DNA of 53,879 nucleotides, filler included, from Stramenopiles sp. TOSAG23-3 (GCA_900128585.1; 4 parts of 4 records of this genome joined end to end with filler, not necessarily neighbours in it), one strand, 5' to 3'. Counted from the first letter of the whole stretch, positions 14,562-49,120 are shown. Made by a program: numbers and translations. Notes: generated by a model from the letters alone, not told the origin.

Positions 14562-16362
14562 TCAAGTCATCCTGTAAGCCAGTGGAGCAAATCCCATACG
14601 GCGCGCATACTTTAGTTTTTCTTCGTCTGTCACTCTATCTTTTAGCCAGACGCCAGAACTTCCTCGGCGCTGATAACGTTTTTTCTTCATATCAAAAATT
14701 TTCTCCAAATCGCAAGAAGTCCTTTCAGCAAATATTTGGTCGGGGTTAATTGGAGCAGGACCCTTCATCCCAAACTGTATTTTCAGTGCACGTTTTAGGG
14801 GTGAACTTCGCGCCCATGGTGCAGGAGGCTTCCGCTTTTTCTTTTTGGAGCTGCTTTCTTCGTCATCACTGGACTCCTCCTCGCTACTTTCACTATTAGA
14901 ATTGTGTTCGGACATCCGGTAACTCTTTGGTTCAGAATTTTGCTTCTCGGCAAAAGCAGGCGCAGGAGCCGGAACCTTTGCAGTTTGAACGTCTGCCTTA
15001 TCTTTTTGTTTGGAGGCATCTTTCAGCTTTTCTCTCAAACGCCGTGCCTCATCTTCCTGTTTCTTTTTTGCTCGCATCTCTAACGTTTCAGTTCGTTTCT
15101 TTTGATCACTAGTGTCTTCCACTTTCACGTCACCACCTGAATTGCCTGTCAGTCCCGGGGATTGGGCTTTTTTAGAATCATTTGGTTTTTTTAGCAGACG
15201 CGGCCACTGAAATGATTGGTGCTTTGGTTTTTATCGCTCCTTCTGAAGTGTCCTCAACTTTTGCTGGAGGAGTCGTCAGTTGCGCCTTCTTCGGATCTTT
15301 GTGGTCCACGGCAGAAGTTTTACTAGCAGGTTCAATTACCTTTTCGTTTTCAGACACGAGGGTACTTTGTGCCGACGTTTCTTTGGCTAGAACAGGCACA
15401 GGGCATTGTTTTGCTTCTACTTTTTTCGCCGCAGCGTCTTTCGTTTTTGTATCATCTGAACTCCCCATCTTTGAAGCGTTGTCAGCTACAGTATTGTTCG
15501 CCTCAACAATCACGCTTTTCACACCTGGCGATGTTGGTACCAGGTTACTAGAATTTTCAACATCCGGTGGCTGATGCGTTTCCGCCTCCTCTTTCACTTG
15601 CGGAAGGGAGTGGTTATTATTGCAATGGGTGATTTGAGGCGACAATTTTGGAGCCGTAATAACACTTTTCTTAAAGGGGGCTTTTTCGGTCAATGCCAAT
15701 GAATTTGCTTCCTTGGCACTACCACTAGCTTCGTCGATGTTTTTACTAGAGGTCGTAGCCACCATTTCTTGCTTCTCTTCGACATTTTTTGCGGAACCCT
15801 CGGTGGTCTCTGCAACCGCAATTTCATGCGCCTCGCCTGGAAAGGCTAAAAATTCAGCCTCTTCATCATGCTCCTGCTTCAAGATTTTTATCAATCTCGC
15901 CACCAGCAAATTTTTTCTTCCCCGAAGGTCTTTCCCTGAACAACCATACGTCTTCAGTTGATCTCGTAATTCTGTAACCTTCAATTTGCTTGCCCGCTCC
16001 TTTGCACTTTTTGCATCAAAATCATTGCCAGAATTGCTTTTTTCATCCAACTGCTTTGCACTGACAACTGATACCGGTGCTATTTTCTCTTTGGAAGGGA
16101 CAACATTGTTCGGTCCCGCTGCAGGCTTATTATTTAAGCCACCAACCACGGAATTAGATACACTTCGAAGTGGATGGCGACATTTTTGCCTTTTTTGAAA
16201 CGGTTTCATTGCATGTGCTAGCCTACGTTTGCCTTCAGTAACCCAGGAGCTTACCCACAGTAAATTTTCTTTTTCCATGGATTGCAATTTACTTTTCTGC
16301 GTTTCTGTCAAAGTTCGCGTCGTGGCGACCCATGTGTCAAGAGTTTGACCTACTCGTTGCAT
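14562..16362 (-). CDS. INCENP: INCENP-like protein (SAP domain plus C-terminal IN-box/Aurora-binding domain); two ORFs joined by a +1 frameshift at an A7 run (15186-15192)
   Basis: C-terminal PAPWARSSPLKRAL..NPDQIF..SCDLEKIF..RYQRRGSSGVW is an IN-box; LKVTELRDQLKTYG..RGRKNLLVARL is a SAP domain; deleting one A gives continuous AKKPNDSKKAQSPG..DVKVEDT. Confidence 0.8.
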
Positions 16363-18739: not shown

Positions 18740-19774
18740 ATGGCGACCGAACACCTTGGCGAAAGAGTCGCTGTTTTGGGTAGCGGCAATACAGGTACAA
18801 TGTTTGCGTGGTTAGCTGCCCGGAAGATAAGAGACCTGCCCCATTACCAGCATAAAATTAAATGGTGGGTTTTTGAAGAAGTCATAGACGGTGAAAAACT
18901 CTCCGATTTAATTAATTCCAACCATGAAAATGTAAAGTATTTGCCAGGAAAAATCTTGCCCAAGTTAGTCGAAGCGGTCACCAACTTAGAGGTTGCTATT
19001 GCCGGCGCAACGGTTGTAATATTTGCGATCCCGCCACAGTTCATTCGACGCTTGCTACCCACGATAAAAAATAAACTGCACCCCCAGGTCAAGATCTTGA
19101 ACGTCATGGAAGGTGTAAGTTTCGACCAAGGGGCTTTCACTCCTTACTCCAGCATTTTTCGATCCGAGGGGCAAATCCAAGCAAGCGTGCTAGGGGGAGC
19201 GTTCCAAGTGCAAAATTTGGAAGCAGGCGAGCACTGCGAAGGCACTATTGGTTGCGAAAAGTTAGAGACCGGGTTGGTGTTTAAAGAGCTACTGGAATCA
19301 CCAGAATTCCGGATTAATGTCGTGGAAGATGTCGTCGGAGTCGAGATGTGTGGCATTCTTAACACGGCAGTCGCGATCGGTGCAGGTGTTGTTGACTCCT
19401 TGGACACTTCGCAGGTGTCAAAATCTCTATATCTTAGAAAAGCATTCAAAGAAATTGAACAATTGTGCCAACGCTTCTTTCCCTCTATCAAGGCCTCGAC
19501 ATTGCTCGAAAGCTGTGGTATTGGGGACTTAATTTCTAAAGCTTACGGGGGCAGAAACCGTCGGTGCGGGGAGGTATTTGCTAGGACGGGAAAGAAATGG
19601 CAAGAAATTGAAAAAGAACTGTTATCGGGTCAAGTTCTACAAGGATCAAAGATTGTGAAGCAACTTCGTGATTTTTTGGATAAAAATGAGGCTACTAAAG
19701 ATTTTCCGTGCCTTTCCAAAATATCGAAAGTGTCTTTTGAGGGGGAGAACCCGATGGTTTTGATATCCAGCTAA
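18740..19774 (+). CDS. GPD1: NAD-dependent glycerol-3-phosphate dehydrogenase homologue (divergent active site)
   Basis: VAVLGSGN Rossmann motif, WVFEE..INSNHENVKYLPG, ESCGIGDL..YGGRNRR, LSGQVLQG. Confidence 0.9.
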   Translation: MATEHLGERVAVLGSGNTGTMFAWLAARKIRDLPHYQHKIKWWVFEEVIDGEKLSDLINSNHENVKYLPGKILPKLVEAVTNLEVAIAGATVVIFAIPPQFIRRLLPTIKNKLHPQVKILNVMEGVSFDQGAFTPYSSIFRSEGQIQASVLGGAFQVQNLEAGEHCEGTIGCEKLETGLVFKELLESPEFRINVVEDVVGVEMCGILNTAVAIGAGVVDSLDTSQVSKSLYLRKAFKEIEQLCQRFFPSIKASTLLESCGIGDLISKAYGGRNRRCGEVFARTGKKWQEIEKELLSGQVLQGSKIVKQLRDFLDKNEATKDFPCLSKISKVSFEGENPMVLISS

Positions 19775-20310: not shown

Positions 20311-23300
20311 TTACCACAACCTGGTACTACGCGTAGTACTTCCTCTGCTTGAAATTACCGTATCATCTTTTGATTGGTCAGTCTCGTATACCACCTTCCC
20401 ACTGTGTCCTCCATGATTCCCATACTTTTCAAACCTCCGCTGTTCTGCGGTTCTCATGGGCTTTGACAGACCGTCAATGACAAGAGGCCTCCCCCATGGG
20501 TCAACTCTAGGGGGGGGGCTATCGCTGGTGCGAGTAACCGTTGGCGATTGCGTCAGCCCGTTTGGCTTCGGAGGTTTTACACCGGACGATTCGTGCAACT
20601 TTGTCATCAGGGTCCTATCACCAACGCCTTGCCAAGAGTCGAAAGTCTCGGCATTTCTTTCGTTGTCAAAGGAAGACTTGTACGAGTCCAGGGCATCAAA
20701 GAACGCACCGTACCTCACACCTTCGCTTTTCATTTCAGTGATTTTCCTTAAAACCCAGCTGCTCTCTACACTCCGAAACATATGGGCGCACGAGTGCTTA
20801 ATGGCGTGGGCAAATTGGTCGACAGTGACAGTACCACTTTGGTTCCTATCTAAAGCTTCCATGCGCTTCTGCAAGTCTCCCCGACAGGAAGACACTACAT
20901 CTCCCATTTTCCTCATCATTTTTACATCAAATTGTGTTTTTGGAACCCACGACGAATCTAGCGTGTCGCCAATGCCTGTTGACCTGCCATCGTTCGTCCT
21001 CCCACAATGATCGTAGTGATCCAACATCCCAGACCTATTGTGATCTTTCATTGCTTCGAAGTCATGAAAAATGCGCCGCCCTGTCTCATTTATTGAATTA
21101 TGTTGATCGGAATAACCAATATTGAGCGAACCGTTGTACACCCCAATTTGACTCGAGAGATGAGGTCGCTGCTTCACCTCGTTGGACTCATGTCTACACA
21201 AATTATAGAAATCATAAAGGTTTACTTTTCCAGAGCTTTTGGCGCCTAACTTTACCAACAGAAAATCTATGTATTCGTCGTCGCAACGTACCGTGCGTTT
21301 GATCGTCTCGTCAAAGTCTCCGAGAAGGATGGAGCCGTCGCCGTCGATATCTTTGGTCAGCAGCCGGTTGTACAGCATTTTTAGCGAGCGATGAAAATCG
21401 TTTTCCAATGATGCAATTTTGTGTACAAACTTCTGCATGATTGTTTTCCCTCTGCGCTGATCTTTTGTTAAAAACCCACTATTCAAATAATCGTAAGAAG
21501 CTTGGTTCCCACTTTTTTGGTACACGGTCTGTTTGTTCCTGCGTAGAAACTCGGCATCTTCGGCATCTGTCTGCGGCAACATACCAAGGCCGAGGCTGGA
21601 GTCATGGGCCCTGGTTGGCATGTCGAACTGTTGCACAAAACTTTGGTAGAATACTTTATTGTTGACTCTGTTCTCCCCCAACAAGGTCTGGATGATTTTT
21701 GTTTCTTCCCCATTCAGCTGAACACCGATTTGAAATAGACCGTCAATAAGAGATTCGATCGAAATCTGACCGCTGTTTTCGGAATCAAACCTGCGGTATA
21801 TCGCAATAATTCTATGCATCTTCCCCCTGATTGCATCCCGCAGCTTACAAATCATGTCTTCCCGTAACCTTTGATATTCCATGTCGGCGTATGAATCCTT
21901 TATTTCAGGGTCCGTCTTTGACAGCACGTCTGTGAGCATGTAATAGTCTATTTGACCTTTTCCACTGGCATCGAAGTGACGACTTAACTCCTTCATTTCG
22001 TCCTTCGTCAGGACGATTCCTAGGGACGTCTTCAGGGTGCGCACAAAATCTTCGTAACTCAACGACCCATCTCGGTCAAGGTCCGCCTGGCGAAGAGCTG
22101 CTTTCAACCTCGTGGAAGAACCCCGTTTTCCGTCGCGCAGTTTTTCTTGCAGCATTTCCAACGAACCAAGCGAGTCCCTGTCTTCGTACGAAACGTTCCC
22201 AGACAACGCTTTTGACATTTGACTTTTCAGCAAGGGGGACATACTGGATTGTTGCTGTCGTAAACCTGCGGACGCCCACGGAAGGGACGAATAAGCGGTC
22301 TTCCCGAGCTCACCGTCCATGTCTCCTGCGTTCGAAGGAACGGGCTTAGTCCCCACATGCACAGCTTCTGCGTGTATGCGACCAGACTTAAAATCCGCCG
22401 AGTTTGGTTTCTTCACTTCCAATGCACTGAGCGCATCCGCGTAGGCAATTAACCCAGTGCCATCTGGGTCCAACCTTGCGATTAGGTGGTCTATGTCAGT
22501 CGTCCCTAAATACCGAAGGGCTGCCCGAAACTCGTTTATCTGCAATTGGCCGTCGTAGTTCACATCAAACGATCGAAACACCCGTGTTAAGTTTCGCTCA
22601 TCGGCGGCTCGCCCAGTAATGTTCCATTCGTTCAGTTTTGGGACGAAGGAGCTTCCTGCTTTGTTCTTGAGCCTATACGCCATGACAGGGTCGGCAGTGC
22701 CACTGTCCAGAGGAAGCAGGCCGCTCATAGGTCTTATCGGAACCGCCTTACCTTCACGATCTCGGAACTCATTCGCTCCCGAGTCGTCCCACGCGCCTTC
22801 ACGCACTCGCTTCCATACCGCATTTTGCGTTTTCTCTTGCATCCGCTCCTTGTATATGTTGTCATTTAATTCTCGCTGGGACAAGTCTGCATCACGGTTC
22901 CAGTCGCCGCCTCTCATTTTTTGGGCTGCAACGTATGCTGGGCTTCCTTCCCGTCGTCGCAGCTCTTTGCTGCCATCTCGTGCCTGGCCGAGGCTCTGCA
23001 AGCTTGACATAGATTGATTTCCCCCTGGAAAGTTCTGCGCCGATTGGCTCCTGTAGGCATTCCTCCCTGGTGCGTGAGCAGGACTAGTGCGTTGTTGCGG
23101 CGGCGGCGGCGCCCTCCCCTGGCCGAAGCTTGCAGCAGTTGGCGCGTTGTGTTGGGGAGGACGAAGCGGCAACGGAGTGCTATAGGGGGAGGCTGGCACT
23201 GGGGCGGCCGGAGATGTGCCACCGCGCATAGAATTTCGATCTCCATACGCTCCGCTTGTACCCGAGGCAGAAGAACGTTGCCGTCCTCTGTGACCCGTTT

Positions 23301-23406
23301 CTTGGGCGCCCGCAGCGGTCGGCATTTTCCAGGAACCCAGGGACTGCCCATAGTGACTTACAGGTGCGTCGTTCATTTTCACAATATTTCCTTCTTTAAC
23401 AAACAA
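20311..23406 (-). CDS. Multi-EF-hand calcium-binding protein (~1030 aa) with Pro/Ser-rich N-terminus
   Basis: EF loops DVNYDGQLQINE, DPDGTGLI, DLDRDGSLSYED, DASGKGQID, DSENSGQIS, DIDGDGSI, DRNQSGTVT. Confidence 0.85.
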   Translation of the reverse strand: MFVKEGNIVKMNDAPVSHYGQSLGSWKMPTAAGAQETGHRGRQRSSASGTSGAYGDRNSMRGGTSPAAPVPASPYSTPLPLRPPQHNAPTAASFGQGRAPPPPQQRTSPAHAPGRNAYRSQSAQNFPGGNQSMSSLQSLGQARDGSKELRRREGSPAYVAAQKMRGGDWNRDADLSQRELNDNIYKERMQEKTQNAVWKRVREGAWDDSGANEFRDREGKAVPIRPMSGLLPLDSGTADPVMAYRLKNKAGSSFVPKLNEWNITGRAADERNLTRVFRSFDVNYDGQLQINEFRAALRYLGTTDIDHLIARLDPDGTGLIAYADALSALEVKKPNSADFKSGRIHAEAVHVGTKPVPSNAGDMDGELGKTAYSSLPWASAGLRQQQSSMSPLLKSQMSKALSGNVSYEDRDSLGSLEMLQEKLRDGKRGSSTRLKAALRQADLDRDGSLSYEDFVRTLKTSLGIVLTKDEMKELSRHFDASGKGQIDYYMLTDVLSKTDPEIKDSYADMEYQRLREDMICKLRDAIRGKMHRIIAIYRRFDSENSGQISIESLIDGLFQIGVQLNGEETKIIQTLLGENRVNNKVFYQSFVQQFDMPTRAHDSSLGLGMLPQTDAEDAEFLRRNKQTVYQKSGNQASYDYLNSGFLTKDQRRGKTIMQKFVHKIASLENDFHRSLKMLYNRLLTKDIDGDGSILLGDFDETIKRTVRCDDEYIDFLLVKLGAKSSGKVNLYDFYNLCRHESNEVKQRPHLSSQIGVYNGSLNIGYSDQHNSINETGRRIFHDFEAMKDHNRSGMLDHYDHCGRTNDGRSTGIGDTLDSSWVPKTQFDVKMMRKMGDVVSSCRGDLQKRMEALDRNQSGTVTVDQFAHAIKHSCAHMFRSVESSWVLRKITEMKSEGVRYGAFFDALDSYKSSFDNERNAETFDSWQGVGDRTLMTKLHESSGVKPPKPNGLTQSPTVTRTSDSPPPRVDPWGRPLVIDGLSKPMRTAEQRRFEKYGNHGGHSGKVVYETDQSKDDTVISSRGSTTRSTRLW

Positions 23407-25428: not shown

Positions 25429-26187
25429 ATGAAGTATTGTACCAAATGCAACCAGAGCAAAGCGCTCACGGAGTTTCAGAAGCGATCCAGATCACGCGAT
25501 GGACTCCAATTTCGATGCAAAGTGTGTGTGAAGGCATATGACAAGAAGTACCGTGAAAACAACCGTAAGTATTGTACCAAATGCAACCAGACCAAAGCGC
25601 TCACGGAGTTTAGCAAGCGATCCGATGCACCCGATGGACTTGACTACCGATGCAAAGTGTGTAAGAAGGCAGCTAACAAGAAGTATCGCAAAAACAACCC
25701 GGAAAAAAAACGTGCAGTGCGAGTGTGCTGGCAAAATAACCGGGAGAAATACAATGCATCAGCATTAAAGAGAAGCAAACGCCCGGAAGTCAAGAAACGA
25801 GTCAATGCACGTTGTAGGGAACGTTACCATACCGATCCACAGTACAAACTTAAGCGTATTTTAAGAGGGCGCTTACACTCAGCACTCAAAGGCAAGAACA
25901 AGAGTGCGGCTACCATGACATTGGTTGGTTGTTCCATTACACACCTGAAGGACCATCTCGAAAAACAGTTCCTACCCGGTATGACATGGGAGAACCATGG
26001 ACCAGTATGGCACGTCGATCATATGATGCCATTCGACTCCTTCGACCTGAGCTATCCCGAACAACAGAGACAATGTTGTCATTACACGAACCTCCAGCCA
26101 TTATGGGGACCGGAAAACATAAGCAAAGGCAATAAAATAATATACAACCGTGTGTGGAATGGGTGTAGATGGATAAATAACGTATAA
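25429..26187 (+). CDS. Free-standing HNH-type endonuclease copy 1 (duplicated N-terminal Zn ribbon)
   Basis: 2x KYCTKCNQ.KALTEF..DGL..RCKVC; C-terminal GMTWENHG..WHVDHMMP..HYTNLQPLW..EN.SK as in giant-virus/phage HNH proteins. Confidence 0.8.
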   Translation: MKYCTKCNQSKALTEFQKRSRSRDGLQFRCKVCVKAYDKKYRENNRKYCTKCNQTKALTEFSKRSDAPDGLDYRCKVCKKAANKKYRKNNPEKKRAVRVCWQNNREKYNASALKRSKRPEVKKRVNARCRERYHTDPQYKLKRILRGRLHSALKGKNKSAATMTLVGCSITHLKDHLEKQFLPGMTWENHGPVWHVDHMMPFDSFDLSYPEQQRQCCHYTNLQPLWGPENISKGNKIIYNRVWNGCRWINNV

Positions 26188-26208
26188 AAGTGATTTTTAA
26201 CTGTTAAA

Positions 26209-29200
26209 ATGATTAAACAAATACATTTCGGAATACTGACCGCGGAAGAAATACGCGAACAGTCGGTTGTACATGTTACTGAAAAGAAGACTTTCCAAGA
26301 TGGTGCGTTTCTGACAAACGGGCTACGAGATAGTCGTCTTAAACTGGCCTTTGGTCACATCGATTTACATACTCCGGTGTATCATATATCGTTCGTGAAC
26401 AACATCGTACAATGGCTTCGTTGTATATGCTACAAATGTGGAAGTACGTTGGTAAAGAACGAACCAACGAACATTCAAAAGAACAAATGGTTGCAATACA
26501 TGGCGAAACACGCACAAAACAAATGTCCGGAATGTCACGAAAAACAGCCAAAGTACAGCTGGAACAAGGACAAGGCACAAATCGAAAAGAGCAAGGTCTT
26601 GTACGATATTGACGATGTTCAAACGCACCTGTGTCAGTTGGACGAATCGTTTCTTTCAAAGGTAGACATGTCCCATCCGAAACATATGATTTTGCGATGT
26701 TTGCCTATTCCGCCAACTAGTGTTCGTCCCGCAATTATGCAGGGCGGAGTAATTCGTGGGGAAGATGATTTAACCTACCGATTGATTCAAATTATGCGCT
26801 CAAACGATAAAGTACAGAAGACCATAATTGACAAACGTCCGGAACACATTATTCACAGTGCAAAAGAAAGCTTACAGAATGCTGTGACGGGCTACATTAA
26901 TCATGCGAAAGTCGGTGGAAAACGTAAAGTTTCAAAACGCGAATACACCAGTCTTACCGCACGTTTAAAAACCAAAGAGGGGCGTATTCGTGGAAATCTG
27001 ATGGGAAAACGGGTGGACTTTACTTCGCGTTCGGTCATTACCGGAGACGATACGTTGGGGATGCATGAGATTGGTATTCCAATTAGTGTGGCAAAGAAGC
27101 TCACTGTACCATTAAAAGTTACTGCATACAACAAAAGTATTATTCAGGATTGGTTGACAAAGAAAGACTCTACGATAAAGTTTGTGATACGACCAAATGG
27201 ATCAAGAGTGGATCTTTCGTTTGTGAATCGTACTAATATTGATGTAGACGTGGGGTGGTCAGTGGAAAGGGAATTAATGGATGGTGATATTGTACTGTTC
27301 AACCGTCAGCCGTCGCTTCATAAAATGTCTATTATGGCCCATGAAGTTAAGATTCTTCCATACAGTACGTTTCGCATGAATTTGAGCTGTACTACACCGT
27401 ACAATGCTGACTGTAAGTATTCTTATTTTTTCCTCTCTTACTCAAACCGAAATTAACATTTTTCATACAGTCGATGGTGATGAGATGAACGTTCACGTTC
27501 CACAGACGTTGGAGGCTCAAGCGGAAGCTCGTAATATTATGGCAGTGCAGTATCAATTGGTATCCCCACAGGCCAATAAGCCGGTAATGGGTGTCATTCA
27601 GGATACGATGGTCGGTGCATATTTATTAAGTGCCAACGACGTATCGTTTACAAAGGAAGAAATGATGCAATGTGTCTTTGCGATAAAGAATTGGGATGGT
27701 ATATTCAACCATCAGAAAAAGTATACTGGGAAAGATTTGATAACCTACGTTCTACCGTACATTCATTACAATAACAAAGGCGTCGTAATTGAGAAAGGTA
27801 AATTTTTAAAAGGTCGATTTACAAAGAAGATACTCGGCCGCGGTGATGGATCTCTGATTCATGTGATGTACAATGAGTTGGGACCGAAGACTACCATTGA
27901 GTTTATCAATCGTTTGCAGTGTATCGTTCATAAATTCTTATCGATACAAGGATTTAGTGTTGGAATAAGCGATATGTTATCCGATGTCAATGTAGAGTCC
28001 GAGATGGAAAAAGCCTTTGATGAAATAAGTCTGGATTCGAACGCTACCGAAGCAAAAATTAACCAGCGATTGAATATATGTAGGGATACTATGGCAACCA
28101 TGGTTCAGACGCCGTTAAACGATAGCAATCGGCTGTACACGATGGTTCATAGTGGTAGTAAGGGTTCCAGCATTAATGTATCTCAAATTATGGCCGTTGT
28201 TGGTCAACAGAATTTATGTGGGAAACGCATTCCAAAAACATGGACCGACCGTACGTTACCGCATTTTGAAAAACATAGCAATGGGCCAAAAGAACGAGGT
28301 TTTATTACGCATTCTTACGTTCAAGGGTTGGAGCCCCACGAGGTCTGGATGCATGCTATATCTGGAAGGGAAGGTTTGATTGATACTGCAATTAAAACGA
28401 GTCAAACCGGTTACATTCAGCGTCGTTTTATGAAGGCATTGGAGAACATAAAGATTCAATGGGACGGTAGTGCAAGAAACGCGGACGGCTCCATCATTCA
28501 ATTTCAATACGGCGACGATGGTTTTGATTCCATGCGAGTATGCAATCAGTACATCGACACATGGGACATGTCCATTGCAACAAAGTATGACCTGATGGAT
28601 GATTATGCCTTTCTCCACGATCTAAACAAATGGAGAGACGATGGTAGCAAAGATACGGGTATGTTTATGTTGCCTGTACCAGTGAAACGTTACATTGACA
28701 ATGCGCTCTTGAACTGTCCAAAACGTAAAAAAATCGGTGTGCGTAAAGTGAAGGAATTGATAGACACTCTGTTAAAAGAAATCGATAACCAGATGTTACA
28801 AATACTTATTCGTGCAAAATTGAACCCGTATCGTGTTGTGAAAGAATTAAAGTTATCGCATGTCGCAATGGACGATGTGTTGGCGCACATACGTTCCGAG
28901 TATGCAATTATAAATGCTATTGCCGGGGAATCGGTAGGTGCGTTGGCCGCTCAAAGTATAGGCGAGCCTGCAACACAAATGACCCTGAACACCTTCCATT
29001 TTGCAGGTGTATCGAGTATGAATGTAACGCTAGGTGTACCACGACTGGAAGAGTTGATCAATTGTACGAAAAGCGATCGTATGAAGACCCCATCGACAAT
29101 TTTACAAACGGACGATGCAGACAAGCTTGTGAAACGATTAAGACATATTCGTTTTGAAGATTTGGTGGAGAAAATGTACATCACACGGTCGCCAAACAAA

Positions 29201-30727
29201 GAAGAAGTAAAATGGTACCATTTATTCCCAGATGAAAATTACCACCCGTATGATCCTAGTAAGGAAACTATTGTGGTTCATTTAAAGGAATGGTATGACA
29301 TGGTGTCGGTAAAAGAATGCTTGAACCAAGTCTATATCGAGTATACGGATGGTCCGCACGCGATTATCCATATACAGCTACCGACTGACGAAGATGTGGG
29401 GATTTACTACGAAAATTATATTCGTAAGCAAACTGTACGTGGAATCGAGCATGCGGAAGAGACAATGAAGGTTAAATTGCCCGGTAAAAGCAAATACCAT
29501 GTTGAAACTTCGCTGTCCAATTTAAAAAAGCTCATCGAATTGGAAGGTGTTGATTTCTCCACCATCAACACGAACGATATCCATATGGTCAAGAATATGT
29601 ATGGTATTGAAGCTGCAAGAGCTTCTCTAATACGTGAAATACGAAAGATATTATCTTACTATGGAATATACGTTAATGTTCGACATATCACACTGGCTGT
29701 CGATTGGATAACTTGGATTGGTGCATTGACCCCACTGACCCGTCATGGTATACGACTGGTAGACACATCGCCTTTAAAACGATCTACCTTTGAAGAAGTG
29801 GTAGAGGTCTTCAATCAGGCTGCATGTGCAAAGGAAATAGACTTACTACAGGGCATTTCCGAATGTATTATAACTGGAACACCGCCTAATTTGGGAACGA
29901 ATGTCGTGGGGACTGTAGTGGACAAGGGTATGATAGAACAGTACAAAGTACCATTCCCAGTAGAGGAATTCAAGGAAATGGTAGCGGAGGACGATTTTGA
30001 CGAAATATATGGGAGTTTGAATGAAGTAGATCCATGGGCAGATGAACGTTCAGCTTGGGAAAAGCCACCAATGCTGCAACCCACACAACCATTGACGTTT
30101 AGTATGCAACCATTACAGTTTTCTCAGCCGACGTTTCAACAATTCCCTTCACAAAATGTTATGTTTCCTCAGGCAACACAAAATGTTATGTTTCCTCAGG
30201 CAACACAAAATGTTATGTTTCCTCAGGCTCAGGCAACACAAAATGTTATGTTTCCTCAGGCACAAACACAAAATGTTATGTTTCCTCAGGCACAAACACA
30301 AAATGTTATGTTTCCTCAGGCACAATTAACGATTAAGCGACCAGTCAGTCCATGTAGTCCGGCGTATTCGCCACATTCACCGACAAGTCCAGCGTATTCA
30401 CCGACAAGTCCAGCGTATTCACCTACGAGTCCAGCATACTCACCACAAACGCCTACAAGTCCGGCATACTCGCCTACAAGTCCGGTGTATTCGCCTACAA
30501 GCCCGGTGTATTCACCTACGAGTCCAGCATACTCCCCACATACACCGACAAGTCCGGCATATTCGCCTACGAGTCCAGCATATTCGCCTACGAGCCCGGC
30601 GTACGACCCTATGGACAATGTATCTGACCCATTTGAACCTCAGAGTCCGGGTTACGATCCTTTTGATCCCGTTTCGGATCCCGTTTTGGCTTCTCCTCAA
30701 AAAAAGCGGCGAAAGACTTACTGTTAA
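26209..30727 (+). CDS. RPB1: Viral DNA-directed RNA polymerase largest subunit (RPB1-like); exons 26209-27412 and 27471-30727, ~1486 aa; with CTD heptads and NLS
   Basis: KEGRIRGNLMGKRVDF, FNRQPSLHKMS, YNAD^FDGDEMN, GREGLIDTAIKTSQTGYIQRR, AQSIGEPATQMTLNTFH, GVPRLEELIN; splicing restores the frame exactly. Confidence 0.95.
27413..27470 (+). other. Spliceosomal GT-AG intron (58 nt, phase 1) inside the Phe codon of NADFDGD
   Basis: GAC T|GTAAGT...TTAAC...TTTTCATACAG|TC GAT GGT GAT; contains an in-frame stop at 27454-27456. Confidence 0.93.
30149..30325 (+). repeat. Coding tandem repeat, 6 x (T/S)QNVMFPQA(Q), in the RPB1 linker
   Basis: Near-identical 27-33 nt units CACAAAATGTTATGTTTCCTCAGGC. 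Confidence 0.95.
30347..30610 (+). repeat. Pol II CTD-like repeats: 10 Tyr-units, YSPTSP(A/V) heptads and three YSPx(S/T)PTSPA decamers
   Basis: Translated sequence; synonymous codons vary between units. Confidence 0.95.
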
Positions 30728-31883
30728 CAATGAATAATGGTATAACAAGATCGGCTACCGCTCCAACGACAATGACACACGCCATGTTGTCAAAATTGTC
30801 TCGTGTGACACCAAACATATTTGCCACCAAACCTCCCAATTCATCCGCAATTACGGCAGATAAATTGGAAACGGACATTAAGAGAGCATAGAAAGTTCCT
30901 TCAAGACCCTCTTCGGCATTGTGTGCAACGATTACAATCAATGGCATCATAATCCACATACCGAACAAGGATTGGCCTATGGTATCGAATACGATTAATA
31001 CCAAGCTAGTGGATAGTTTTGTAACGACTAACAGTTGCACCAACGAGCATGCAACCGCACAGTATATGGATACACGCATTAATTTTAAAGGTGAAACGTT
31101 TAGCAGACAGGTTTTGTATATAAAGGTGGATGCAAGAAACGAGTAGCTTCCAGCTATGGTAATCCATTGAAAATCTTCTGGTGTGTAATTTAATTCTTTC
31201 CGTAAAAAGTATGTGTACAATGGACCATAGTTTGGACCTATACTTATTCCAAATATGGCAAATGCAAGAACCCGTTTTTTATAGACTGCTTTAACTAATT
31301 TTTTACACATGTTGTTTGGTGCTCCGGTCTCATTTTTTGCCAATGTCCAAATGCAGCATCCCATGATTAGACATGGCAAAGCAATGAGTTGAAACGTTGG
31401 TTTGTATCCATACATTTCATAAAAGCTCCCACCCAAAGAGGACCCAATGACACTGCCTAGTGCGCGTGATGACCAACATGTGGATTGCGTTTTTCCCTTT
31501 ACAGATTCTTTTTTGGCAAAGTCTACTGTAATGCAGTCTGCACATACGTCTGCAAAACACATAAAGAAGGATACCATGGTCATCGTAGCTATCATGCTAG
31601 TTTTCGTTCCAATTAGATTCGGTAATGTAACATACATGTAAGCAAGTAGTATACCAGAACAGAAAATATACGGTCTTCGTTTCCCCCAATCTGCAACGTG
31701 GTACTTGTCGGAAATTATTCCAAACAATGGTTTAATGCACCATGGTATTGCGATGACACCGTAACTCATGGTCATCTCAACAGGGGTAAATTTCAAGCTG
31801 TCCATCATTTCAAAGTTCATGGCAATACTTCCAAAGGTCATTGCGAACCCAAAGGTAAAATAACACATATACAATGCTAACAT
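30609..31883 (-). CDS. Folate/biopterin transporter (BT1, MFS)
   Basis: IPWCIKPLFGIISD..KRRPY, ADVCAD, EGLEGTFYALLMSVSN; about 12 hydrophobic segments. Confidence 0.85.
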   Translation of the reverse strand: MLALYMCYFTFGFAMTFGSIAMNFEMMDSLKFTPVEMTMSYGVIAIPWCIKPLFGIISDKYHVADWGKRRPYIFCSGILLAYMYVTLPNLIGTKTSMIATMTMVSFFMCFADVCADCITVDFAKKESVKGKTQSTCWSSRALGSVIGSSLGGSFYEMYGYKPTFQLIALPCLIMGCCIWTLAKNETGAPNNMCKKLVKAVYKKRVLAFAIFGISIGPNYGPLYTYFLRKELNYTPEDFQWITIAGSYSFLASTFIYKTCLLNVSPLKLMRVSIYCAVACSLVQLLVVTKLSTSLVLIVFDTIGQSLFGMWIMMPLIVIVAHNAEEGLEGTFYALLMSVSNLSAVIADELGGLVANMFGVTRDNFDNMACVIVVGAVADLVIPLFIVNSKSFAAFFEEKPKRDPKRDQKDRNPDSEVQMGQIHCP

Positions 31884-34073: not shown

Positions 34074-37000
34074 TTACTCGATCGCCATGGCAATTCCTAC
34101 AATTCGTTGTCTTTTCCGTGCTTGTACGAGTTCTTGTATATTTAAATTCATTCGATCGGAGGCCTTTACTCTTTTTTTTGTGGCTTGAGCTTGTTGCGTT
34201 TCCATAAGATCTTGAGGGTAATGTTCTTGTTGTTGCGATTTTCCCAAGGTTTCATGAACGATTTCCGGATGATACTCAATGGCACTCGCTTGATCCATTT
34301 CCAAGAACTCTATGCATCTTCTGCACCAGCCCCATGAGTCCGTGTCGGTATCCATAACGGTTAAATCGTGTTCACCCAACATGGAATCGGTCAGACCAAG
34401 CATTCGTTTTACCCCGCTTGTCTCCTGAGACGAATTTTTGATGACTGGTCCGTCCTTCCTTAGGTTTCGTTTCATGTATAAGGTTTCCATAAACTGTGGC
34501 CATCGAATAACGCCTTTATCGCGATGTGGTAATCCTAAGACAATCTTCCGTTCTTTGGTATGGCAATGGGATAGACCTAGGATACATTCCTTCATAATGT
34601 TTTTCTCGTTGTTCGTTCGTATGTCTTCAAAGAGACCAATGTGAAAGTCATTAAAGCCTGTTCCCGGGATGAATACAACGACTGGTTTTTTCCCATCTTC
34701 GGTCACTGCCTTTGCAAAGTCGTCGTCGTACCTGTCTGTGTAATCGTTTTCAGGGTTTTTGTACCTGTACGAATTAAACGGTTCGCCCATCAGTTGTTGT
34801 AGTACACCGTGTATGTTGTGTATGGACGGTTTCCCGGTGGAAAATGGTATCGCGTTTTGTATTTTGACGCACAATTGGTGTATACCGTTTTTGAAGCGGA
34901 TATAATTGAAGTCAACGGTTTCGGATCCAGTGTGAGTTTTATCTTTCTTGTACCCGGGATTTAGTTTGAAGACTTTCCACATGGCACGAATGGTTTTTTC
35001 GCGGGATACAGTCAATTGTGGGATTTCAACGGTGACCATGTTCATCGCACATATGGCTATTTCTTGCGTGCAATAGAGCAATGGCTCAACATCCAACAGT
35101 TGTTCCAACTTGAACTCTTCCATGTGGTACTTTGAGTTGATGAAATGATACAAAATATCCAACGCGTTTGTAATGGTAAGAATGCGACAAAGGATGTAGA
35201 ATCGCTCTGTCGTTCGGGGTGGAATTCGTACATCAAACTTCTTGAAATTCTTTGAAATGTTGCTTAAGACAATGTTGGCAGCGTCCACGTCAACGTCTCG
35301 TATGATTCCACAAAAGATAAATTTCCAGACGTAGAAAACCTTCATTTGCTGGTCTTGGCAATAGTAGATAAACTGTTCGTACTTTTTCTTCAGTTCTGGT
35401 TTGTTTTGCATTTCGATATCTTTTGCTTTGTAGTCCGCTATGGTCTTGTCTACTCGATACACTTTGTCAAACTCACCCCAATGAAATCGTGACTTAACAG
35501 CTTCTTCTGCCAGAGCCGGGTTATCGTTGGTGGCACCCATGTAAACGCCAATTTGACTGGAAATGGCGATACGATTCTTACGTTCCCCTGTCTCCTCATC
35601 ACGAACAAATTCTTTCGTGCGCACTCGATTGGAGGTTAATTTTTCCTTCATTGACGACAACGCTTTTTGTGCGTCTTCGCTCTTGCTATTGGCTTGAAAC
35701 AATCCGGGCGGCGCTTCATTAAAGATGGTGATATGGTCGTTTTGATCCCCATCAATCGCATCGGCTCGTGTAGTCTGGTAGGTAATTTCCGATATGGTAC
35801 CGGGAACGCTCATATCCGCCGCCCGTTCAAATGCAAACGATTTCGAAGTAGCACTTTCGCCAGTGTATATTGAATTCCAATGCAGCTGGTTAATTCCGTG
35901 TTGACGGTACGCATCGTACTTTGCGTAATGCAATTTCACCAACTCCGGGTGAGCCGATGCTACACACATGAAGGAATCCAACGATTGTTGAAACCAAAAT
36001 TGCATGTTTCCAAACGGTGACAATTCGCGGTCTCTTATTTCAAAGGTGAAATATCCATGCTGTTCGTGTAATTCGGGACGCAAATGAAGCAACCAGCTCG
36101 CAATGGCTTTTCCGGGTGCCGATATATCCGCATCACCAGTAACGCACATCTGTTCAAACTTTTTAATCATAGTGTTTTTCGTACGTTGTTTATCGTCGCT
36201 AAAGGACATGCGATAGCTCGTTTCCATTTCAATGATATCAAATGCACTGATGCTATGTTGATTTTGAAACTTGCTTTTCAGGCGATCCGTATATTCCATG
36301 CTTTCACTTCCATGGCCCGGTACGAAAGTCGAATCGTACACCATGTTGGCAGTCAACCAACCATAAATTTCCAGTGGTTGTGGGTCTTCGCGTTTGCAGT
36401 AAATGGTAAAACGTCCCTTCGCAGCCGATACAACCGTGTTGTATATATTGTCATTAAGGTTGGTCCACATGTCGTTAATTTGGTGTACTTCCGTATCGGC
36501 GTTCAGGTACTCTTCCAATAAGCAACGTGCGGGACATGGTTTGATGTACATATCCTTACGTAACATGTCGTGTGGGTTTTGGGACACAATAATTTCCGGT
36601 AGATCGACCCACATGTACTGATGCGATGGAAGGTACTTTTTCCACAAGTATTGGGGTTGTAGCTGGTGCCAGAAGCGTTTCACAAGTAGCTTCTCGTTTG
36701 GGAATACGTACTTTCCATTTCGAAAATAATTGGCCCTGTCGTTTTGGCGAGCACACGCACCTTCAATTTCAAAATTTTCCAACGAAAAGATTTCAAAGGG
36801 CGAAGCCTCAAAGCCACGTATTTCCTCGTTGGACAATAGTTTGGTCGAAGAATATATTTGTTCGGAGGTGAGCGTGTTGTTCTTGTAGACGTCGCACACG
36901 TTCAAGATGTACTCTTCCTTTGTCTTTACATGGCGCATGTAATACTCCCACTCCTTGTACATGGGCTTCTTACTTTCGCCCCGTCGAGTCGCATTGGAAA

Positions 37001-37460
37001 GCATAAAGCTAAAGACACCAGCAACGTCTGGGTTCCCGCGGTTGATAAAGGCGTGAATGCGTTCGCCAACAATAGTATCGGTGTCGGATTTGACGACTTC
37101 AAAAAACAATACTACCCCATTACCATCTGGTATGGTCGGTTCTTGTTCTTCCTCGGAACCCCTTGGCTTTTTCGGTTGCTTCTTCCGTAGTCCAAGTCGG
37201 TAGACGAAATCGATAAACCAAGTAAAGGTGACGCGATACGCTTGTGACTCTTTCGTACCTTCGTCTACGTTCTGCCAATCCGCAAAGGTAGACGCATTCG
37301 ACTGCATGATACAGCGAGGAAGACGGTAGACCATGTGAATAAAGCCTTCCTCGTTGGAGGGGGGGATTTCCACACGGATATCGGACAAATGATTGGTGGC
37401 ATTAAAGGCCCAATCTTTTCCGGAATGAAGGTACGTACAAGCTTGTAAATAATCGCTCAT
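34074..37460 (-). CDS. Large AAA+ ATPase with MCM-like motifs; putative replicative helicase (1128 aa)
   Basis: Walker A GESATSKS (cf. MCM GDPxTxKS), Walker B-like ITIFNE, sensor GATN, arginine finger KSRF, PPRTTE sensor-2-like; C-terminal basic RKRQR. Confidence 0.6.
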   Translation of the reverse strand: MSDYLQACTYLHSGKDWAFNATNHLSDIRVEIPPSNEEGFIHMVYRLPRCIMQSNASTFADWQNVDEGTKESQAYRVTFTWFIDFVYRLGLRKKQPKKPRGSEEEQEPTIPDGNGVVLFFEVVKSDTDTIVGERIHAFINRGNPDVAGVFSFMLSNATRRGESKKPMYKEWEYYMRHVKTKEEYILNVCDVYKNNTLTSEQIYSSTKLLSNEEIRGFEASPFEIFSLENFEIEGACARQNDRANYFRNGKYVFPNEKLLVKRFWHQLQPQYLWKKYLPSHQYMWVDLPEIIVSQNPHDMLRKDMYIKPCPARCLLEEYLNADTEVHQINDMWTNLNDNIYNTVVSAAKGRFTIYCKREDPQPLEIYGWLTANMVYDSTFVPGHGSESMEYTDRLKSKFQNQHSISAFDIIEMETSYRMSFSDDKQRTKNTMIKKFEQMCVTGDADISAPGKAIASWLLHLRPELHEQHGYFTFEIRDRELSPFGNMQFWFQQSLDSFMCVASAHPELVKLHYAKYDAYRQHGINQLHWNSIYTGESATSKSFAFERAADMSVPGTISEITYQTTRADAIDGDQNDHITIFNEAPPGLFQANSKSEDAQKALSSMKEKLTSNRVRTKEFVRDEETGERKNRIAISSQIGVYMGATNDNPALAEEAVKSRFHWGEFDKVYRVDKTIADYKAKDIEMQNKPELKKKYEQFIYYCQDQQMKVFYVWKFIFCGIIRDVDVDAANIVLSNISKNFKKFDVRIPPRTTERFYILCRILTITNALDILYHFINSKYHMEEFKLEQLLDVEPLLYCTQEIAICAMNMVTVEIPQLTVSREKTIRAMWKVFKLNPGYKKDKTHTGSETVDFNYIRFKNGIHQLCVKIQNAIPFSTGKPSIHNIHGVLQQLMGEPFNSYRYKNPENDYTDRYDDDFAKAVTEDGKKPVVVFIPGTGFNDFHIGLFEDIRTNNEKNIMKECILGLSHCHTKERKIVLGLPHRDKGVIRWPQFMETLYMKRNLRKDGPVIKNSSQETSGVKRMLGLTDSMLGEHDLTVMDTDTDSWGWCRRCIEFLEMDQASAIEYHPEIVHETLGKSQQQEHYPQDLMETQQAQATKKRVKASDRMNLNIQELVQARKRQRIVGIAMAIE

Positions 37461-41636: not shown

Positions 41637-42254
41637 CTAATTAATCCATTTAGTACCGGTCCATGTACGATTGTAGATAATTGTATCGCCTTTGCTTATG
41701 TTCTCTGGTCCCCACAATGGCTGGAGGTTGGTGTAATGACAACATTGTCTTTGCTGTTCGGGATAGCTCAGGTCGAATGAGGCCATGGGCATCATGTGAT
41801 CCATATGCCATGTTCCATGGTTCTCCCATGTCATTCCGGGAAGGAACTGCTTTTCCAGATGGTCTTGTAGGTGTGGCATGGAACAACCCAACAATGTCAT
41901 GGTTGGAGCACTCTTGATCTTGCCTTTGAATACCATCCCTACGCGGGAACGTAAATTCCTTGCAAGTCGGAACTGTGGATCGGTACGGTAACGTTCCCTA
42001 CTACGTGCGTTTCTTTGTTTCTTGACTTCCGGGCGTTTTCTGCTCAACCTTTTTTTCGCTTTTTCTTTCTCCCGGTTGTTTTTGTAGTACTTCCTGCTCC
42101 ATGCTTTTTGTTTCTCCGGGTTGTTTTTGCGATACTTCTTGTTAGCTGCCTTCTTACACACTTTGCATTGGGATTTAAGTCCATCGGGTGATGCGGATCG
42201 CTTGCCAAACTCCGTGAGCGCTTTGCTCTGGTTGCATTTGGTACAGGTCTTCAT
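41637..42254 (-). CDS. Free-standing HNH-type endonuclease copy 2
   Basis: CTKC..CKVC Zn ribbon; WHMDHMMP..HYTNLQPLW..EN.SK. Confidence 0.8.
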   Translation of the reverse strand: MKTCTKCNQSKALTEFGKRSASPDGLKSQCKVCKKAANKKYRKNNPEKQKAWSRKYYKNNREKEKAKKRLSRKRPEVKKQRNARSRERYRTDPQFRLARNLRSRVGMVFKGKIKSAPTMTLLGCSMPHLQDHLEKQFLPGMTWENHGTWHMDHMMPMASFDLSYPEQQRQCCHYTNLQPLWGPENISKGDTIIYNRTWTGTKWIN

Positions 42255-42289: not shown

Positions 42290-42865
42290 CTAGTTCTTTA
42301 TCCACCGTGTACCGGTCCATGTACGATTGTAGATAATCTTATCATGTTTGCTTATGTTCTCCGGTCCCCACAATGGCTGGAGGTTGGTGTAATGACAACA
42401 TTGTCTTTGCTGTTCGGGATCGCTCAAGTAAAAAGAGGCACATGGCATCATGTGATCGACGTGCCATGTTCCATAGTTCTCCCATGTCATTCCGGGAAGG
42501 AACTGTTTAGTCAGATGCTCCTTTAGGTGTGGTATGGAACATCCCAGTAACTTCATGGTACTCGCACTCTTGTTCTTGCCTGTGAGTGCATGACGTAAGC
42601 GTCTACGTAAATTACTTGCAAGTTTGAACTGTGGATCGGTCTTATTGCGTTCCTTGTTACGTGCATTTCTTCGTTTCTTGTATTCCGGGCGTTTTTGCCT
42701 CTTCTTTGCTTGAGCATTGCATTTCTCCCGGTTGTTTTTGTAGTACTTCTTGCCTCTTGCATTATGACACACTTTGCATCGGGATGCGAGTCCATTGGGT
42801 CTATCGGACCGCTTGTAAAACTCCGTGAGCGCTTTGCTCTGGTTGCATCCTTTGCAAAACTTCAT
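42290..42865 (-). CDS. Free-standing HNH-type endonuclease copy 3 (start MKFCKGC)
   Basis: Same architecture; tandem with copy 2; same TATAAAA(A)GCGATT..TTCAAATG leader. Confidence 0.8.
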   Translation of the reverse strand: MKFCKGCNQSKALTEFYKRSDRPNGLASRCKVCHNARGKKYYKNNREKCNAQAKKRQKRPEYKKRRNARNKERNKTDPQFKLASNLRRRLRHALTGKNKSASTMKLLGCSIPHLKEHLTKQFLPGMTWENYGTWHVDHMMPCASFYLSDPEQQRQCCHYTNLQPLWGPENISKHDKIIYNRTWTGTRWIKN

Positions 42866-42922: not shown

Positions 42923-43432
42923 ATGTCAATTATAGTTGAGAAATATCAGCAACCTACAAAAGTCGCGTTTTGCGGTAGTATGGGTTCAGGCAAGTCATAT
43001 GCGGCAAACCTACTCTCCCAGAAAACGAATTTACAGGTTATGAGTATTGCCAAGCCGATTAAGGAAATTGTGGCTGAAATGGGAAAAAGTGATAGGGCTT
43101 CGCATATTTTAGTCGGTATGGTCGGCAGGTACGTAGCACCAGATACATGGATCGACAAGCTATTAGATCGTGTTCCAGACGAAGTAATCATCGACGATGT
43201 TCGATTTCCGAATGAGTGCAATAAACTCAAAGAAGCCGGGTTTACACTCATTCATCTCGACGTACCGTGGTACCAACGCTTCGCACGTATTGAAAAACGA
43301 TCCGAGGACCTCAATGACCACATAAGATGGTTCGCACATGAATCCGAGAAAGCTTTGGAAAATTACAATTCCTTCGATTACGTATGCGCAACTGAAGAAG
43401 AAGTGGACAAATTAATCGATAAACTAGTTTAA
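42923..43432 (+). CDS. Deoxynucleoside monophosphate kinase-like P-loop kinase
   Basis: GSMGSGKS; PDTWI; VIIDDVRFPNE; AHESE, typical of phage/giant-virus dNMP kinases. Confidence 0.8.
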   Translation: MSIIVEKYQQPTKVAFCGSMGSGKSYAANLLSQKTNLQVMSIAKPIKEIVAEMGKSDRASHILVGMVGRYVAPDTWIDKLLDRVPDEVIIDDVRFPNECNKLKEAGFTLIHLDVPWYQRFARIEKRSEDLNDHIRWFAHESEKALENYNSFDYVCATEEEVDKLIDKLV

Positions 43433-43463: not shown

Positions 43464-44213
43464 ATGAACCGCGATTTAAAAGAGATTCGCGATAAGAAAC
43501 TATTCCTCGAAACGTTCAAAAATGCACGCACTGAAAACGATAGTAAGTACTTGTACTATCTGCCTGTTCACGGCCCATATAATCCCAAAATAATAGTTGA
43601 AACACCGGGGTCTCGAACTCCAATTGAGTCCGAGTCTGACTGGGTAGACCTTGGTCCATATACCCCCGATATTCCCACGCCTAAAGAAGCAAGGGATGAA
43701 GAGAACCTTAGTGAAGACGACGGCAGTCCAAACCTTGTGTTTTTACCACAATATCGAAACCTGTACCAAGTGCGTAGATGGAATCCTAATGAGCCAACAC
43801 TCATACAGGTAAATGTACCATATGCAAGAAAACCGAAACCAAGCAAAGTAAACTATTCCCCAATTGAGAACGACACAGTACTTCGTTTGAACACTTGCAT
43901 CGTCAGACTTCGTTTGGAGTTAAGCAACTACACTAAAATAAGTGGGGGTACAATGGACTGGTGGGTCGGTGATGGACGGTTTAGTGGCTGGTGGGATCAT
44001 ATGTATTACTGGACGGTGAATAACAGAAATGTGTACACATTACGAACGTTTTACTTAGGCCAGTACTTTGCTATAGCAAAAGACTTACTCATGCTAAAGA
44101 ATGCTTTAAATGACAGCAATCCTAGGTTTAAACTTCAACAAACCAGACAACAACAGATCATGGCGCTGCTTAGGCGTGTAGAGAGTAATTTTGGAATGGT
44201 GTGGAGGCGTTAA
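43464..44213 (+). CDS. Hypothetical viral protein (249 aa)
   Basis: ORF with upstream TATA; 4-nt convergent overlap with the next gene. Confidence 0.7.
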   Translation: MNRDLKEIRDKKLFLETFKNARTENDSKYLYYLPVHGPYNPKIIVETPGSRTPIESESDWVDLGPYTPDIPTPKEARDEENLSEDDGSPNLVFLPQYRNLYQVRRWNPNEPTLIQVNVPYARKPKPSKVNYSPIENDTVLRLNTCIVRLRLELSNYTKISGGTMDWWVGDGRFSGWWDHMYYWTVNNRNVYTLRTFYLGQYFAIAKDLLMLKNALNDSNPRFKLQQTRQQQIMALLRRVESNFGMVWRR

Positions 44214-44743
44214 CGTAGTATGTAACTACCATTTTGTTTAATCAACCACTGAGTACCGTTCCATTTCATATCATGAACAATTTTCTTTCCTTTGCTTAAA
44301 TTTTGACGTTTAAACAATGGTTGCATGTTCGTATAATGATAGCATTTGTACTGCTCCTTGGTTTGTTCCAAGTTAAAATAACAGCATGGCATCATGTGAT
44401 CAATTTCCCACACTTTTCCATAATTGTCCCATGCCATTCCGGGTTGGAATTGCGCTTCTAGGTAGGTTCTCAGATGGTCGCTGCTGCAATTTACGAGTCC
44501 CATGGTAGTATCGCCTTTGTTTTTGCATATTTTTCTCAGCCGACGTCTCAGATTCTTTTGCAATCGAAAGAGTGGGTTTGTTTTCATTTTGTTCTTTTGG
44601 TATTGGTACATTTGCTTGTTCAAACGTTTGCTGTTCTTCTTGTAGTATTTCCGCTGTTTCGCGTTTTTGCACTGTTTGCAGTTGGTGGAACGCTTCGGAA
44701 ATTCACAGCGTAATTTAAAAGTGTTACAGTGTTTACAGTTCAT
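44210..44743 (-). CDS. HNH-type endonuclease copy 4 (more divergent)
   Basis: CKHC..CKQC; GMAWDNYGKVWEIDHMMP..HYTNMQPL..QNLSK. Confidence 0.75.
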   Translation of the reverse strand: MNCKHCNTFKLRCEFPKRSTNCKQCKNAKQRKYYKKNSKRLNKQMYQYQKNKMKTNPLFRLQKNLRRRLRKICKNKGDTTMGLVNCSSDHLRTYLEAQFQPGMAWDNYGKVWEIDHMMPCCYFNLEQTKEQYKCYHYTNMQPLFKRQNLSKGKKIVHDMKWNGTQWLIKQNGSYILR

Positions 44744-49095: not shown

Positions 49096-49120
49096 GGTAT
49101 ATATTATATTTTAAATGCTT

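Follow-up and report, generated by a model that had tools for sequence, protein, structure and literature searches.

A spliceosomal intron in the catalytic motif of a mirusvirus-like RNA polymerase gene, probably old, dispensable and repeatedly lost

We analyzed a 53,879-nt stretch of DNA (filler included) from Stramenopiles sp. TOSAG23-3 (GCA_900128585.1), hereafter the window, in which a virus-derived gene for the RNA polymerase II (Pol II)-like protein RPB1 (RNApolA) is interrupted by a 58-nt intron within the codons for its NADFDGD catalytic motif. The evidence suggests, with a probability that we put at roughly 60%, that this is an old spliceosomal intron of a Demutovirales-type mirusvirus, inherited vertically and repeatedly lost by exact deletion, and that it is dispensable rather than a regulatory gate. 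Among the other explanations, a mobile intron spread with the aid of homing ranks second and a regulatory switch ranks low.

The gene lies on the plus strand and has two exons. The first (26209-27412) comprises 401 codons plus the T of a Phe codon, ends in ...TPYNAD and matches Pfam Rpb1 domains 1 (E = 7.6e-50) and 2 (E = 2.7e-45). The second (27471-30727) begins TC GAT GGT GAT GAG ATG, i.e., (F)DGDEM, with TC completing the Phe codon, and runs for 1084 codons from DGDEMNVHV to a stop codon at 30725-30727; it matches the final 25 positions of domain 2, domains 3, 4 and 5, and the C-terminal domain (CTD) repeat. Between them is a phase-1 intron (27413-27470) with a GTAAGT donor (27413-27418), a branch-like ATTAAC (27452-27457) about 14 nt ahead of the acceptor, a T-rich tract containing the pyrimidine-rich TTTTTC, and a CAG acceptor (27468-27470). 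These coordinates, and the reading of an intron that splits the Phe codon of NADFDGD in a viral RPB1 gene, are exactly those of the original prediction, which was made from the sequence alone. Translation also bore out the two products it had described. Computed removal of 27413-27470 rebuilds NADFDGDEM and gives a protein of 401 + 1 + 1084 = 1486 aa, and the unspliced open reading frame (ORF; 26209-27456) gives 415 aa, with a tail of NAD followed by CKYSYFFLSYSNRN and only one of the three catalytic Asp residues. At the junction, sequence comparison shows the predicted spliced product to be the same as natural intronless alleles. A polymerase made of two separate polypeptides was ruled out, since the break falls within the metal-binding motif.

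Judged by its sequence signals, the insert is a genuine U2-type spliceosomal intron: it has GT...AG ends with an extended donor, a branch motif followed by a pyrimidine tract, and its removal restores the frame. An Rfam scan of 26000-31000 at E <= 1 gave no match, with the group I introns of two other contigs (L036 and L047) recovered as positive controls at 92 and 79 bits, and 58 nt is too short for a group I or group II catalytic RNA. Removal of GT-AG introns of this kind requires the nuclear spliceosome.

We searched both strands of the window for further introns, asking for a strong donor, a branch-like YTRAY and a YAG acceptor that together join two frames, each open for at least 50 codons. 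Nine candidates were returned, two of which join otherwise separate frames: the RPB1 intron and an intron at 1570-1627 on the minus strand. The other seven, from six distinct donor sites, fall within uninterrupted ORFs, and a stricter scan returned the same two introns alone. The RPB1 intron thus stands out beyond chance. The second intron belongs to a cellular gene for an adaptor protein (AP)-complex sigma subunit (1369-1852, minus strand) and is well supported, with matches of both exons to Clat_adaptor_s (E = 5.7e-18 and 1.8e-21) that cover profile positions 2-73 and 76-140. It too is 58 nt long and has the same kind of signals (GTAAGT..CCTAAC..TAG), so that the claimed likeness between the viral intron and that of a host AP4S1 gene holds. 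The claim that the virus-derived block contains no other intron also stood: no second intron is evident among its approximately 22 ORFs, which are colinear with a related viral contig and align to it as single ORFs, although both scans were strict (GTAAGT-type donors) and weak introns would escape them.

We then surveyed relatives of the gene for an intron at this codon. A search of 5.8 billion proteins with the exon 2 protein yielded a clade of 64 metagenomic proteins that are 41-98% identical to the window protein, compared to 31-35% for eukaryotic Pol II. The NADFDGD motif is continuous in 37 of these proteins, 20 start at the Met directly after DGDE, and 7 have another start; in both cases that could be checked in DNA (L001 with P0019, L005 with P0033) the start after DGDE corresponds to this intron. 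At the DNA level we compared 15 loci, i.e., 14 clade contigs and the window. Identical base and phase are occupied in five of them, by introns of 58 (window), 60 (L103), 61 (L005), 71 (L106) and 81 nt (L001), all with a GTAAGTA donor, an (A/T)CTAAC or ATTAAC branch motif and a YAG acceptor, and the exon 2 proteins of the four relatives are 50-86% identical to that of the window. The 60- and 81-nt introns are multiples of three; the 58-, 61- and 71-nt introns are not, and must therefore be removed if the frame is to be kept. A sixth locus (L015:2350-2406) has a 57-nt phase-0 intron, GTAAGT..TACTAAC..TAG, at NADFD^G, 5 nt downstream of the window site. The branch motif is ACTAAC in L001, L005, L106 and L015. 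The remaining nine loci are intronless. Clear homology links the window intron to that of L103, and the L005 intron to that of L106, which indicates vertical descent of the intron; across subclades the signals alone are common.

Close relatives of the window gene differ in whether they carry the intron. A marine sequencing run (X3) contains a 3,961-nt contig, at a depth of 22.5, with 13 differences from the window over approximately 3,900 aligned bases, from which the intron is exactly absent: position 27412 is joined to 27473 with TT between, giving GAC TTT GAT. Apart from a C>T change adjacent to the junction, the differences are not clustered there. The next contig of this run, on the other strand, extends into oppositely oriented neighboring genes at the same depth of 22.5, and such equal depth on adjoining contigs of both strands fits DNA rather than mRNA as the source of the allele. 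The 14-24 kb length of contigs from the European Nucleotide Archive (ENA) further argues for a DNA origin of intronless alleles. The 90% cluster that holds the window allele comprises two full-length intronless proteins and four 415-aa "unspliced" ORFs. One of the latter (P0154) is exactly the window's own 415-aa ORF, from other assemblies, and one of the former (P0155) is identical to the window protein over 958 kept columns.

Phylogenies were used to estimate how often the intron state has changed. In a FastTree phylogeny of 86 sequences, which included a 71-sequence viral clade (support 100), the state changes at least 13 times, with protein start serving as a proxy for intron presence that was verified in two cases with DNA. 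On an IQ-TREE phylogeny of 19 sequences, restricted to DNA-verified states, at least 5 changes are needed, and 5 in all 200 bootstrap trees. The latter tree contains the grouping (L103,(P0003,(window,P0155))). Because the L103 and window introns are homologous within this group, recent exact loss is the simplest reading for P0155 relative to the window, as far as sequences can tell. Given near-identical strains that lack it, nine intronless loci out of 15 and at least 13 state changes, the sequence record argues that the intron is dispensable.

These findings bear directly on the proposal, made in the original prediction, that retention versus splicing of the intron times the production of active polymerase and thus acts as an early/late or latency switch. 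The part of that claim concerning dependence on the nuclear spliceosome agrees with established knowledge, and with the CTD and basic tail of the protein described below, and we retain it; the switch is not supported. In its favor, the unspliced product is missing two catalytic Asp residues, conservation of the intron site extends over a diverse clade, and the intron is practically the sole canonical one in the window's viral block and, by strict scan, in a related viral contig (G001). Yet near-identical strains manage without the intron, the motif is uninterrupted in most of the clade loci and in 37 of its 64 proteins, and intron length and sequence are unconserved outside the splice signals. 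We therefore regard a regulatory gate as improbable.

The position of the intron may have more to do with the site than with regulation. Among 75 nucleocytovirus-like IMG/VR contigs with approximately 30% identity, the motif is continuous in 72, cut by the contig end in one, and interrupted by group I introns in two. These introns (L036:686-1064 and L047:1717-3000; Rfam RF00028) are inserted between the NAD and F codons, and the L047 insert is about 1.28 kb long and opens with an ORF. The RPB1 gene of Marseilleviridae also carries a group I intron (PMC5413956). Three insertion points lie within about 8 nt: group I at NAD^F in L036 and L047, spliceosomal phase 1 in five loci, and spliceosomal NADFD^G in L015. 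Such a pattern, seen in sequence comparison, fits a hotspot in conserved sequence better than a designed gate, and the intron would then be dispensable baggage in a conserved stretch that attracts introns. Separately, the motif is interrupted by ordinary introns in two eukaryote-like RPB1 contigs, at positions and in phases that differ from those above (L114:6960-7018 and L144:7930-8000).

A hotspot may also be read as a sign of mobility. The intron would pass from one co-infecting genome to another: an endonuclease would cut the intronless site coding for NADFDGD, and repair would copy the intron into it. The free-standing HNH gene next door could act in trans. Such "collaborative homing" has reportedly been described for a cyanophage psbA intron. 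In line with what is typical of homing elements, no stretch of the gene is more conserved than this site. The three insertion points lie close together and include the group I introns, the distribution of the intron on the trees is patchy, and in both the window and L103 RPB1 is immediately preceded by an HNH ORF. Spliceosomal homing introns have moreover been described in mirusviruses (Medvedeva et al. 2025, PMC12768974). However, the window intron is 58 nt long and has no ORF, the HNH ORF being outside and upstream of it, so it is not a spliceosomal homing intron ("shintron") in the sense of one with an endonuclease inside. Furthermore, intron divergence keeps step with that of the exons, and in the 11 loci with at least 3 kb of upstream sequence an HNH homologue was found in the upstream flank of three of five intron-bearing and two of six intronless loci, i.e., with no association. 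The differences between the window and the X3 allele, unclustered at the junction but for the adjacent C>T, also speak against it. We thus consider a homing-assisted intron unlikely, although it is the nearest rival to an old intron that was repeatedly and exactly lost. A broader proposal, in which mobile introns of several types all land in the NADFDGD stretch of viral RNA polymerase genes, the clade has a mobile spliceosomal intron that free-standing HNH endonucleases help to spread or maintain, and the polymerase mimics host Pol II through its CTD heptads and an import tail and works in the nucleus, is in our view similarly doubtful; if true, it would contradict the view of Demutovirales as cytoplasmic.

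The polymerase itself is viral, as had been predicted. On the FastTree phylogeny the window gene falls outside the eukaryotic sequences: its clade is separated from 10 eukaryotic Pol II proteins (support 99), with no nesting within host Pol II. Its best cellular matches are all Pol II, at the 31-35% identity given above. A Pfam search of the window protein found no Rpb1_7 (PF04990), and its match to Rpb1_6 (PF04992) is below the cut-off. On the basis of this placement, identity and missing domain, a host Pol II gene was ruled out. The clade forms a group of its own (support 100), and identity to nucleocytovirus-like (GVMAG-type) contigs is only 28-33%.

Gene content of related contigs points to mirusviruses. 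A 133.8-kb IMG/VR contig (G002) encodes two heliorhodopsins (best 98.3 bits, E = 2.2e-29), with a weak match in G001, and G001, which has an intron-bearing RPB1 (the L005 locus), encodes Snf7 (58.8 bits, E = 2.4e-17); both genes were found in these relatives and neither in the window. Heliorhodopsin and Snf7 are core functions of mirusviruses according to Medvedeva et al. (2025, PMC12768974), in whose account Demutovirales are the order with a retained RNA polymerase, an intron density of 0.042 per kb and the branch consensus WCTAAC. Traits of this kind are present here: an own RPB1, one intron in approximately 24.7 kb, and ACTAAC in the introns of four relatives. A 613-aa ORF of G002 matches the T4-type Terminase_6N profile at 22.1 bits (cut-off 22) over positions 2-210 of 215, and a phmmer search of the Protein Data Bank (PDB) linked it to a phage terminase at E = 0.017. 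A search of G001 and G002 for the nucleocytovirus capsid (PF04451) gave no match, but control genomes were equally silent, and no capsid candidate was found within the window. Because of the heliorhodopsins and Snf7 in relatives, the retained RNA polymerase, the scarcity of introns and the branch consensus, the clade is probably a Demutovirales-like mirusvirus, rather than a nucleocytovirus or host Pol II.

The C-terminus of the polymerase leans toward the nucleus as well. In the last part of the gene (30180-30727), QNVMFPQA repeats precede about a dozen YSPTSPA-type heptads, followed by a KKRRKTYC end. The CTD-like tail (30348-30647, plus strand) consists of 21-nt repeats coding for SPAYSPT/YSPTSPA heptads (direct repeat family D1, nine copies at 21-nt spacing; PF05001, E = 9e-14), and the basic cluster KKRRK, within ...SPQKKRRKTYC (30701-30715, plus strand), is a putative nuclear localization signal. 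Relatives have the same type of tail (P0003-P0068, L001-L007, L103-L108 and L150). Of the 64 clade proteins, 61 have at least three SPxYSP-type heptads and 46 have, by a strict pattern, a basic cluster within the last 16 aa. The heptads were found in none of 74 nucleocytovirus-like RPB1 tails, and the basic cluster in none of 54 eukaryotic Pol II sequences. The presence of CTD heptads and a basic tail across the clade, alongside the spliceosomal intron, makes nuclear dependence plausible. Viruses with an RNA polymerase gene of their own are usually taken to be independent of the nucleus.

We envisage the following course of events. The intron would be old in the clade, inherited vertically and lost repeatedly by exact deletion, which would leave close strains that differ in its presence. 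From an intron-bearing genome, RPB1 pre-mRNA would have to be processed by the host spliceosome in the nucleus, since otherwise only the 415-aa product could be made. The RPB1 message would thus be transcribed at a site of spliceosome activity, and either host Pol II or a packaged enzyme would presumably make it. The Pol II-type heptads could serve to attract capping and splicing factors of the host, and the basic C-terminal tail could act as a nuclear import signal.

Several observations weigh against this account. The X3 library is recorded as "DNA?", a guess, and intronless alleles derived from cDNA are conceivable in principle. The counts of state changes cannot separate gain from loss, and gains or homing could also give rise to the patchy distribution. 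The assignment to mirusviruses rests on contigs of relatives and on marginal terminase matches, and the window branch motif, ATTAAC, departs from WCTAAC. Medvedeva et al. lean toward cytoplasmic replication for most Demutovirales (PMC12768974). Finally, among the contigs listed for three metatranscriptome runs (X17, X19 and X20), none bridges 27412/27471. These runs contain small exact pieces of both RPB1 exons; the nearest exact contig ends at 27349, and X19 has one piece in the bin 27417-27567, outside the contigs listed.

The RNA result, together with the small source assembly and a scaffold with an N gap, could be taken to mean that the interruption is an assembly error or that the gene is a never-spliced pseudogene. 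Independent assemblies share the interruption, however, both exons are strongly conserved, with 100% identity to the intronless P0155 over the 958 columns, and RNA libraries contain exact fragments of both. An artefact or a dead gene is thus barely credible.

The RPB1 gene is part of a virus-derived block of approximately 24.7 kb (24860-49608) that is colinear with G002 and bounded by inverted HNH copies. By tblastn, the window from 26.2 to 49.1 kb matches G002 from 97.6 to 78.1 kb, and the left limit was obtained by blastn to L103. Common to the block and G002 are RPB1, a BT1-family transporter and ORFs of 607, 89, 1128, 307, 152, 147, 169, 372 and 83 aa, and all ORFs of the block are intact. 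No match to G001, G002 or L103 was found in 1-24.8 kb or beyond 49.6 kb of the window; in L103, the closest relative, viral genes continue upstream of RPB1. The left flank contains genes for AMP deaminase (3728-6007; best named matches in stramenopiles, at approximately 50% identity), an INCENP-like protein (14562-15077), glycerol-3-phosphate dehydrogenase (GPD; 18740-19774) and an EF-hand protein (20311-23376), and the right flank contains a gene for a BNR-repeat protein (50065-51114) and an N gap near 51.74-51.85 kb. The location of the block between stramenopile-like cellular genes may reflect either integration or a chimeric assembly of an infected cell.

This setting raises the question of whether the intron was gained after the block became endogenous in a host chromosome, as has been reported for decaying endogenous viral elements, in which case it would be uninformative on free viruses. 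The flanking AP sigma, AMP deaminase, INCENP-like, GPD and EF-hand genes would agree with such a gain, as would the resemblance of the RPB1 intron to the cellular AP sigma intron. Nevertheless, the same site is occupied in gene-dense viral contigs of 24-80 kb (L103, L001, and L005 in G001), the window's 415-aa ORF recurs exactly in other assemblies (P0154), and the ORFs of the block are all intact and colinear with G002. Gain after endogenization is therefore very improbable, and we continue to favor an old intron of the virus itself.

Other genes of the block include the HNH family already mentioned. An HNH/endonuclease VII-like ORF of 252 aa (25429-26187, plus strand; phrog_1035 of PHROGs, E = 2.2e-30) ends 21 nt before the RPB1 start, and in L103, too, RPB1 is immediately preceded by a homologue. 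At least five copies or fragments of this family are present in the block (25429-26187, 41637-42254, 42290-42865, 44210-44743 and 49118-49608; repeat families D2-D4 and I1-I10). The copies are 74-92% similar in nucleotides, inverted and diverged copies mark both block ends, and several sit in stretches that are missing from the syntenic region of G002. Convergent with RPB1 is a BT1-family (folate-biopterin type) transporter gene (30609-31883, minus strand; PF03092, E = 6.9e-47), which neighbors RPB1 throughout the clade and whose synteny is kept in L001-L006 and G002. As called, this ORF overlaps the RPB1 CTD repeats by 119 nt; its last approximately 27 residues are unconserved, so the overlap may be a spurious extension. 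A conserved 1128-aa ORF (34074-37460, minus strand) has a P-loop-like YTGESATSKSF and 31 metagenomic homologues, which are invariably close to RPB1; it matched neither a Pfam nor a PHROGs family, none of the 31 homologues has a functional name, and its AlphaFold model (pLDDT 64) had no Foldseek match in the PDB at E <= 0.001. The block also encodes a small P-loop kinase-like protein (42923-43432, plus strand) with a weak match to dNMP kinase and a thioredoxin (44971-45594, minus strand).

A polymerase gene that needs the spliceosome in many strains, combined with a Pol II-type CTD and a basic tail, points against independence from the nucleus. Should this be confirmed, the most abundant marine mirusviruses would have to be regarded as at least partly nuclear. 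In addition, pairs of intron-bearing and intronless strains at approximately 99.7% identity provide a clean system for studying the loss or spread of viral spliceosomal introns, and the stramenopile-like flanking genes may hint at the host of a group for which hardly any hosts are known.

The general phenomenon is already known, and the window gene joins it: spliceosomal introns of mirusviruses were published in November 2025 (Medvedeva et al., Nat Microbiol, PMC12768974). As in the main text of that report, the GT-AG introns found here in a large marine DNA virus have protist-like lengths and a low density resembling that of Demutovirales, are variably present among close relatives and, in L001, L005, L106 and L015, have an ACTAAC that agrees with the WCTAAC consensus. 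The window intron differs from that consensus by its ATTAAC, and carries no gene. The main text of PMC12768974 stresses genes of the virion module (major capsid protein (MCP), terminase) and is silent on an intron within the catalytic motif of the polymerase, which its Supplementary Table 4 may list.

As in the group I intron of Marseilleviridae RPB1 (Fabre et al. 2017, Nat Commun, PMC5413956), a viral RPB1 is split into two adjacent ORFs and removal is required; however, group I introns self-splice, match RF00028 and need no nucleus, whereas the window insert has spliceosomal signals and no Rfam match. In pandoraviruses, Mollivirus and some chloroviruses, spliceosomal introns are interpreted as marking a nuclear phase (PMC12768974, PMC5413956). 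From these nucleus-dependent nucleocytoviruses the window gene differs in lineage and in having a single intron in the active-site motif of a virus-encoded polymerase.

With eukaryotic Pol II RPB1 the window protein shares the domain order from Rpb1_1 to Rpb1_5, the NADFDGD motif and YSPTSPA-type heptads (PF05001). In the collection of papers searched, none linked mirusviruses with a polymerase CTD or heptads, and none described this tail. The window protein departs from the eukaryotic one in its low identity (31-35%), in being approximately 300-400 aa shorter, in having no Rpb1_7 and a sub-threshold Rpb1_6, and in a tail of about a dozen heptads with a Q-rich repeat ahead of them and a basic end that is absent from the 54 eukaryotic sequences.

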